NCBI RefSeq assembly: GCF_030013595.1
Contig: NZ_CP122768.1
Direction: 5' to 3' (one strand)
Length of the DNA stretch: 64,000 bases
Origin: Escherichia coli
Lineage (GTDB): Bacteria; Pseudomonadota; Gammaproteobacteria; Enterobacterales; Enterobacteriaceae
Shown here in pieces: positions 21,001-24,000 of the stretch. Every line of letters begins with the position of its first letter. The first letter of the stretch is position 1. A program made the position numbers.

Positions 21001-24000
21001 GCAGGAAGGTTGGCGCATTTCACCACCAGTAAAATACCAATCCCCAGCGATGCCAGACCAAAAATTGATGTCATGGAGACGCGGATACGTTCCGGTAAGC
21101 GTTGGCTAAGGAGTGCACCGAGAACGCCACCCAGTAATACTGCACTTGCGTTGATAAAAGGACCGATGACCACAAGAGTTCCTGTTAGCTGCATTATCTG
21201 ATTTTCTTATTATGAACGTTTGGCACCTTCGATGGCTTGTTTGTTCGCAAAGTCCTGGCTTGCACGCTCTGGTGAAAGGTGCCATGATTGCGCGAATTTT
21301 CTCCTCTCTGTACGGAGTTTGCCCGATGCACGCCACCTCCTTACATTCTCTCGCTTATCGCCGTTTCGCGCGAAACTCCTCCCCTTTTCTGCTCATGCGG
21401 TGAAGTTAACGCACGCTCACTGCAGGACAACAGTAAAATCAGAGCGTTTCTGCTTTTACTGATGTCTGGCGGTCGGAGCTGGTGACCAGTTTGACCCATA
21501 TCTCGTGGGGCAGGGTTTTTCACCTTGTCCGGTATTCTTACTTCCCCGAAACGGGTTTTGCGCTTATGAAATCAATGAATATTGCCGCCAGTAGTGAACT
21601 GGTATCCCGACTTTCTACTCATCGCCGCGTGGTGGCGTTGGGAGATACTGATTTTACGGACGTCGCGGCAGTCGTCATTACCGCTGCGGATAGTCGCAGT
21701 GGCATTCTTACGTTGCTTAAGCGCACCGGTTTTCATCTACCGGTGTTTTTGTATTCCGAACATGCTGTTGAATTACCTGCGGGCGTTACGGCGGTAATCA
21801 ATGGCAACGAGCAGCAGTGGCTGGAGCTGGAATCCGCAGCCTGTCAGTATGAAGAGAATTTGCTTCCACCGTTTTATGACACGCTGACGCAGTACGTTGA
21901 GATGGGCAACAGCACCTTTGCTTGCCCTGGACATCAACATGGTGCGTTCTTTAAAAAGCATCCTGCCGGACGCCATTTTTACGATTTCTTTGGTGAGAAC
22001 ATCTTTCGCGCCGATATGTGTAACGCTGACGTAAAATTGGGCGATCTGCTTATTCATGAAGGATCGGCGAAGGATGCGCAGAAATTCGCAGCCAAAGTCT
22101 TTCATGCCGATAAAACCTATTTTGTACTGAACGGCACATCGGCAGCGAATAAAGTGGTGACGAATGCGCTGTTAACGCGTGGCGATCTGGTGCTCTTCGA
22201 CCGTAACAACCATAAGTCGAATCATCACGGCGCGCTGATTCAGGCGGGGGCGACGCCGGTCTATCTGGAAGCTTCACGTAACCCGTTTGGTTTCATTGGC
22301 GGTATTGATGCGCACTGTTTTAATGAAGAGTATCTGCGCCAGCAAATTCGCGACGTTGCGCCAGAAAAAGCGGAGTTGCCGCGCCCGTTTCGCCTGGCGA
22401 TTATTCAGTTGGGAACCTATGACGGCACTGTCTATAACGCCCGTCAGGTGGTCGATACCGTTGGGCATCTGTGTGATTACATTCTGTTTGATTCCGCGTG
22501 GGTCGGTTACGAACAGTTTATCCCGATGATGGCGGATAGCTCGCCGCTGCTGTTAGAACTTAACGAAAACGATCCGGGGATCTTTGTGACCCAGTCGGTG
22601 CACAAACAGCAGGCGGGATTCTCACAGACGTCGCAGATCCATAAAAAAGATAACCATATCCGTGGACAGGCACGTTTTTGCCCGCATAAGCGGTTGAATA
22701 ATGCCTTTATGCTCCATGCTTCTACCAGCCCGTTCTATCCGCTGTTCGCCGCGCTGGACGTTAACGCCAAAATTCATGAAGGAGAGAGTGGGCGTCGGCT
22801 GTGGGCTGAGTGCGTTGAGATAGGGATTGAAGCGCGCAAGGCTATTCTTGCGCACTGTAAGCTGTTCCGCCCGTTTATCCCGCCCGTTGTTGATGGCAAA
22901 TTGTGGCAGGATTATCCGACGTCAGTGTTAGCCAGCGACCGCCGTTTTTTCAGTTTTGAGCCGGGGGCGAAGTGGCACGGCTTTGAAGGATATGCCGCGG
23001 ATCAGTATTTTGTTGATCCGTGCAAGCTGTTACTCACTACACCAGGTATTAATGCCGAAACTGGCGAATATAGCGACTTTGGCGTTCCGGCGACGATTCT
23101 GGCGCACTATCTGCGTGAGAACGGCATTGTGCCGGAGAAGTGCGATCTCAATTCCATTCTGTTCTTATTAACGCCGGCGGAAAGCCACGAGAAGCTGGCA
23201 CAACTGGTGGCGATGCTGGCGCAATTTGAACAGCATATTGAGGATGACTCGCCGCTGGTTGAGGTGTTGCCGAGCGTTTATAACAAATATCCGGTGCGCT
23301 ATCGCGACTACACCCTGCGCCAGTTGTGTCAGGAGATGCACGATCTGTATGTCAGTTTCGACGTCAAAGACCTACAAAAAGCGATGTTCCGCCAGCAGAG
23401 TTTCCCGTCAGTGGTGATGAATCCCCAGGATGCGCATAGCGCTTATATTCGCGGTGAAGTGGAGTTGGTGCGGATTCGTGATGCCGAAGGGCGAATTGCG
23501 GCAGAAGGGGCGTAGCCTTATCCACCAGGCGTGCTTTGCGTGGTACCCGGAGAAGTCTGGGGTGGGGCGGTTCAGCGTTATTTCCTTGCGCTGGAAGAAG
23601 GGGTGAATTTATTGCCGGGATTTTCGCCGGAGCTGCAAGGTGTCTATAGCGAAACCGATGCGGATGGCATGAAACGATTGTACGGTTATGTGTTGAAGTA
23701 AGAAAAAAACGGGTCACCTTCTGGCGACCCGTTTTTCTTTGCGTAATTAGTGGCTCACCGTCTGTGTGCCTGTCGGGACACGAACGTGTTTATATTTGAA
23801 CATCGCCATGAACGCGAAGGCCAGAACCACGGAGTAACCAGCGAAAATCAACCATACGGTCTGCCAGTCGGTAATGCCGTTTTGGGTGTACATCTCAACA
23901 ACTTTACCGCTCACGATGCCGCCAAGGATACAGCCGAAGCCGTTAGTCATCATCAGGAACATCCCCTGCGCACTGGCGCGAATTGCCGGGCTAACTTCTT

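Follow-up and report, generated by a model that had tools for sequence, protein, structure and literature searches.

The stretch of DNA analysed here, referred to as the window, comprises 64,000 nucleotides of contig NZ_CP122768.1 from the Escherichia coli assembly GCF_030013595.1. It begins with the pheV island (1-20 kb) and continues with the genes yqgA-speC-nupG-mltC-yggX-mutY...metK-speA-speB-tkt...pgk, in an arrangement colinear with annotated genomes. Our analysis is centred on speC, the gene for the constitutive ornithine decarboxylase (ODC), whose reading frame carries an in-frame amber codon. The gene, its surroundings and the genes of the alternative route to putrescine are located as follows.

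20285..20360, minus strand: pheV, tRNA-Phe (GAA), the sole tRNA gene in the window (ARAGORN scan)
21566..23512, plus strand: 5' part of speC, 649 sense codons (translation, Pfam)
23513..23515, plus strand: amber codon TAG, codon 650, from TTG (Leu) by T>A at 23514 (allele comparison)
23516..23701, plus strand: untranslated in-frame 3' remnant of speC, 61 codons and TAA (translation, alignment to the family)
23705..23736, both strands: bidirectional intrinsic terminator hairpin (folding against 200 shuffles)
47799..49775, plus strand: intact speA, coding for biosynthetic arginine decarboxylase, step 1 of the alternative route to putrescine (protein match)
50788..51708, plus strand: intact speB, coding for agmatinase, step 2 of the same route (protein match)

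Translation of the window shows that speC opens on the plus strand with the ATG at 21566 (MKSMNIAAS...) and runs through 649 sense codons before TAG is reached in the same frame at codon 650 (...AAEGA*PYPPGV...). In K-12 MG1655 (b2965) this codon is TTG (Leu), as an earlier note on this DNA had stated, and the closest intact alleles have the same codon. TTG is converted to TAG by a single T>A exchange at 23514, the sole difference within codon 650. The position lies in a non-repetitive context outside any homopolymer, which confirms the view taken in the earlier note that the change is a substitution and not a homopolymer slip. Downstream of the TAG, which is directly followed by a C, the frame stays open for 61 more codons up to the TAA at 23699-23701, so that the in-frame remnant described before was recovered in full by translation. 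These 61 codons carry no lineage-specific change compared with strain VCSW7, which has TTG at codon 650, and gene callers place a separate 53-aa ORF with a PF03711 match in them.

The gene order tRNA-Phe / yqgA / speC / nupG / mltC is that of annotated genomes and, together with the sequence, identifies the gene as the orthologue of b2965. It shares with K-12 speC, which encodes a 711-aa enzyme, the yqgA-speC-nupG synteny as well as the start, stop and terminator, whereas K-12 has Leu at position 650 and the two proteins differ at 10 further residues, in no case disruptively. At the DNA level, 49 of 2,136 nt differ between the two genes, which are colinear without gaps. With 97.7% identity to K-12 speC over 2,136 bases, chance is not an issue for the interrupted frame.

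Pfam analysis showed that the N-terminal wing domain (PF03709, SpeC residues 4-95, profile positions 1-111 of 111) and the PLP-binding major domain (PF01276, residues 101-543, profile positions 1-417 of 417, E = 5e-202) are both complete. The C-terminal domain (PF03711) is matched in the actual product at residues 568-648, covering profile positions 1-79 of 132, and in the conceptually repaired protein at residues 568-697, covering positions 1-131 of 132. The amber codon removes the last 62 residues and about 40% of the C-terminal domain; neither this domain nor the 711-codon frame is complete, with the product ending at residue 649. The lost residues hold the motif LPYPPGV..V.PGE.W...YF..L..G.N..PGF.PE.QGVY, and all solved members of the wing-domain family, whether ornithine, arginine or lysine decarboxylases, can be aligned with this segment. 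Taken alone, the C-terminal 92 residues align to the ODC of Lactobacillus 30a (1ORD, 1C4K) with an E-value of 2.6e-23. For LdcF, the C-terminal domain has been found to form part of the active-site entry channel (PMC7806604). Based on the truncated domain and the conservation of the lost segment, we infer that SpeC function is probably lost and that the truncated protein is inactive, crippled or unstable. The earlier suggestion that the amber codon may inactivate SpeC is the reading best supported by these two lines of evidence. In the literature on O138 and O138:F18 strains, the serotype of one carrier described below, no ODC phenotype was found, and ornithine appears as a PhenePlate substrate without a per-serotype result.

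The exact 649-aa product is already present in public databases (STE04797.1 / UniRef A0A376HHF6), with coding sequences on 24 or more contigs (39 index blocks). At the DNA level, TAG was found in eight independently produced assemblies, each matching the window at 99.97-100% identity along 6-22 kb. These comprise GCA_900448395.1, GCA_021649415.1, GCA_012931135.1, GCA_021887745.1, GCA_021646965.1, GCA_002968075.1 and the Logan assemblies of runs ERR4421113 and SRR10970594 (carrier loci L002-L004 and L014-L018). The first of them, UFZA01, is an NCTC-type (STE/UFZA) accession with a 3.43-Mb contig. A sense codon at 23513-23515, which the earlier note had proposed to look for in raw reads, has thus effectively not turned up, the same TAG being read in at least eight independent assemblies produced with PacBio or Illumina. 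Among themselves, the carriers show about 0-2 private SNPs in 9-22 kb. Such a small number of private SNPs points to a clonal expansion of the amber allele, which would thus have persisted through a real expansion and not be a one-off. Among the carriers, JAKLOW01 (GCA_021887745.1) could be identified from the literature as AUF18 / 9910297-2STM, a Danish O138:F18 ETEC challenge strain of porcine origin (PMC8931358), and at least one member of the amber clone is therefore a porcine post-weaning-diarrhoea / oedema-disease strain.

The exact TAG-centred 61-mer is found in none of the 5,426 complete RefSeq E. coli genomes, 5,292 of which match it at 95-99% identity, the best with one mismatch. Since no genome in this set is more than about 99.2% identical to the window at this locus, the lineage is missing from the complete-genome set. 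This distance first raised the suspicion of a Shigella or EIEC origin, which was rejected since the identical protein and DNA are present in E. coli assemblies, among them a porcine O138:F18 strain. The direction of the change could be read from two sister assemblies, GCA_018579305.1 (L019) and ERR4843674 (L021), which have TTG together with the clonal core of the window. Over the 13.4-kb core, position 23514 (T), position 26550 and two window-private sites are the only ones that distinguish them from the window. As TTG is carried on the same core, it represents the ancestral state and the amber codon is derived and recent within the clone. SpeC as conceptually repaired (Leu650) is also present in the protein collection, on four contigs. 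The locus shows what is expected of a premature-stop pseudogene: a stop stands where the orthologue has a sense codon, the remainder is colinear, the carriers are clonal and the sisters are intact. Apart from the amber codon, the speC DNA at 21406-23924 is also identical in two further isolates (L020 and L022), whose yqgA, nupG and mltC are ca. 0.8-1% diverged. This points to a recombination mosaic around speC.

Directly 3' of speC, between the convergent genes speC and nupG, direct folding of positions 23705-23736 gave a hairpin of -22.3 kcal/mol on the plus strand and -24.6 kcal/mol on the minus strand (z = -5.3 and -6.3, respectively). None of 200 shuffles folded as well, and U-runs are present on both strands. 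This is in line with the bidirectional terminator that the earlier note had placed behind speC; a simple consensus terminator scan missed the hairpin, which its loop-size limit left out. Because speC is monocistronic and is directly followed by this terminator and then by a convergent gene, no other gene is affected by the amber codon and there is no polar effect.

Both genes of the arginine route are intact, as had been claimed before. For speA, a full-length ungapped match with 1 aa difference from WP_001295380.1 was obtained, and for speB a full-length match with 0 aa differences from WP_000105566.1, neither gene containing an internal stop. The arginine route to putrescine is thus available. 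Between speA and speB lies a 243-aa ORF (49921-50652, plus strand), annotated solely as "hypothetical protein" in strain 144 and conserved in the window apart from 5 aa.

A recent and genuine TTG>TAG mutation (Leu650>amber) has become fixed in one E. coli clone that contains AUF18, and we consider it likely that the truncated SpeC is misfolded or inactive. Translation would end at codon 650 and yield a 649-residue SpeC in which the wing and the PLP-binding core are kept and the last 62 residues are gone. In this family, the C-terminal domain takes part in the dimer interface and in the active-site entry channel. Because conservation of the deleted piece extends from E. coli as far as Lactobacillus, a protein without it would be expected to misfold or to lack activity. 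The gene speC would then be a young pseudogene of a dispensable enzyme, putrescine presumably still being produced by the intact SpeA-SpeB pair and possibly also by SpeF. Such an alternative supply of putrescine would explain how the amber allele could spread through the clone. Both the loss of enzyme activity and its near-neutral effect on fitness are what we infer from these data.

A truncated protein that still folds, dimerises and keeps useful ODC activity would make the allele a hypomorph or nearly silent instead of null. The complete wing and PLP-binding major domains with their untouched catalytic core are compatible with such residual activity, and so is the persistence of the allele through a clonal expansion at roughly 0-2 private SNPs per 9-22 kb. 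However, the 62 missing residues include the best-conserved C-terminal motif, found in every solved Orn/Arg/Lys decarboxylase, and losing 40% of a compact domain usually destabilises that domain. Persistence is equally well explained by dispensability, given that speA and speB are intact. We thus regard useful residual activity as unlikely.

A similarly low probability is assigned to the proposal that loss of SpeC was a selected, pathoadaptive step in the host-restricted porcine O138:F18 oedema-disease / post-weaning-diarrhoea clone. If it was selected, the loss would be convergent with the inactivation of speC in host-adapted Salmonella (Gallinarum, Typhi and cattle-associated Cerro). The amber sub-clade is represented by 39 index blocks compared with 2 contigs of intact sisters with the same core, an imbalance that could be explained equally well by sampling bias.

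It is very doubtful that functional SpeC is restored, be it by a supE-type suppressor, by natural leakiness or by a separate C-terminal piece that starts at a GTG and complements the truncated protein. The 61 downstream codons are still open and unchanged, and termination is relatively weak at a UAG with C as the next base, so that traces of full-length protein could arise by natural read-through. An intact remnant is, however, expected from a young mutation alone. In-frame GTGs are located 16 and 25 nt 3' of the stop (23531 and 23540), in the region where gene callers emit the 53-aa ORF, but neither is preceded by a well-spaced Shine-Dalgarno sequence, and either start would leave out the conserved LPYPPG. 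Suppressor read-through, offered as an alternative in the earlier note, found no support: ARAGORN detected no suppressor tRNA candidate in the 64-kb window, where the only tRNA is tRNA-Phe(GAA), and among the carriers at least AUF18 is no laboratory suppressor strain but a natural isolate from pigs. The stop is also not conserved, with TTG in the sisters and the amber sequence absent from the 5,426 complete genomes, and thus does not represent programmed recoding. Least credible of all, and in our view practically negligible, is the idea that the source genome of the window was sequenced or assembled wrongly at this codon. The prior and one suspicious homopolymer indel in mutY can be named for it, but it is contradicted by a substitution outside any homopolymer that recurs, across laboratories and platforms, in at least eight assemblies and 39 index blocks.

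Read as a young pseudogene, the Leu650 amber is an ordinary recent lineage-specific gene loss of a kind already known from Salmonella speC and does not involve a new mechanism. No publication describing this allele was found in the literature. In the cattle-associated clade I of S. Cerro ST367, a speC nonsense mutation at codon 573 is fixed; the ODC test was still positive, which the authors credit to SpeF (PMC9748477). Both cases are single-base nonsense mutations in the C-terminal domain, found in one clonal livestock-associated clade with intact sister isolates. They differ in species and in the position of the stop (573 compared with 650), with the whole C-terminal domain being lost in Cerro, where the phenotype was also tested. 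The gene is disrupted in Typhi and Gallinarum as well (PMC9748477). In S. Gallinarum, and also in strain RKS5078, a 4-bp speC deletion underlies the ODC-negative biotype (PMC4454671). This case resembles ours as a lineage-specific inactivation in a host-restricted enteric pathogen that affects a classical biochemical marker, whereas it is caused by a frameshift deletion and not by a nonsense mutation, and the ODC-negative phenotype has been confirmed in Gallinarum.

A second amber allele of E. coli speC, Q586* (CAG>TAG), came to light when no more than 40 proteins of the SpeC cluster were read (locus L026 1214-3349, Logan ERR10712133; protein P0014, four contigs). It is likewise an in-frame amber codon with an open frame downstream, but is located in an unrelated background with 51 nt differences across speC and has TTG at codon 650. 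Nonsense alleles of speC thus recur in natural E. coli. The T>A exchange at codon 650 provides a clean lineage-defining marker for the porcine O138:F18 clone, including a widely used pig challenge strain. The predicted defect in constitutive ODC could have an effect on biotyping by ornithine decarboxylase as well as on polyamine physiology during challenge experiments, and the allele adds an E. coli case to the recurring loss of speC in livestock- or host-adapted enteric bacteria.

Of 47 core genes compared in the window, two are disrupted, namely speC and mutY, a number within the usual range for natural isolates. In mutY (26652-27703, minus strand), an A6 run is shortened to A5 at 27231-27235 (codons ca. 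156-158), resulting in a 166-aa product. The gene is intact (350 aa) in all seven close relatives, amber carriers and TTG sisters alike, and the frameshift is private to the window assembly, where it reflects either a mutator allele of this strain or an error in assembling the homopolymer. Exactly this slip is also found in unrelated genomes, among them the porcine strain ETEC1748 (annotated as "frameshifted"), ETEC1706 and the laboratory strain TUM24570, and in 152 index blocks at 98.2-98.8% identity. We considered a mutY mutator as the origin of the speC stop and rejected it. With mutY intact in the other amber carriers and in the intact sisters, the frameshift is later than the amber mutation. 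Further, T>A is not the MutY signature (G:C>T:A), and the window-private SNPs 17577 A>T and 28967 C>T do not carry this signature either.

The pheV site (window 1-20360) is occupied in the window and in all amber carriers by an island with integrase, PEtN-transferase-like, adhesin-like and BREX genes. The BREX-1 part is a remnant (7322-15717) composed of the following genes.

7322-9406: brxL, full-length
9417-12020: pglZ, full-length
12191-14689: pglX, profile positions 404-1210 of 1210 only, the first ca. 400 being gone; adjoins the IS5-family transposase gene
14749-15717: IS5-family transposase

No brxA, brxB or brxC was found in the window; NCTC9699 has these genes across a stretch that is ca. 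9 kb longer. Judging by this gene content, the BREX-1 defence system of the pheV island is probably inactivated. In the TTG sister GCA_018579305.1 (L019 1-8600), the same pheV site holds a type II secretion (gsp) cluster instead.
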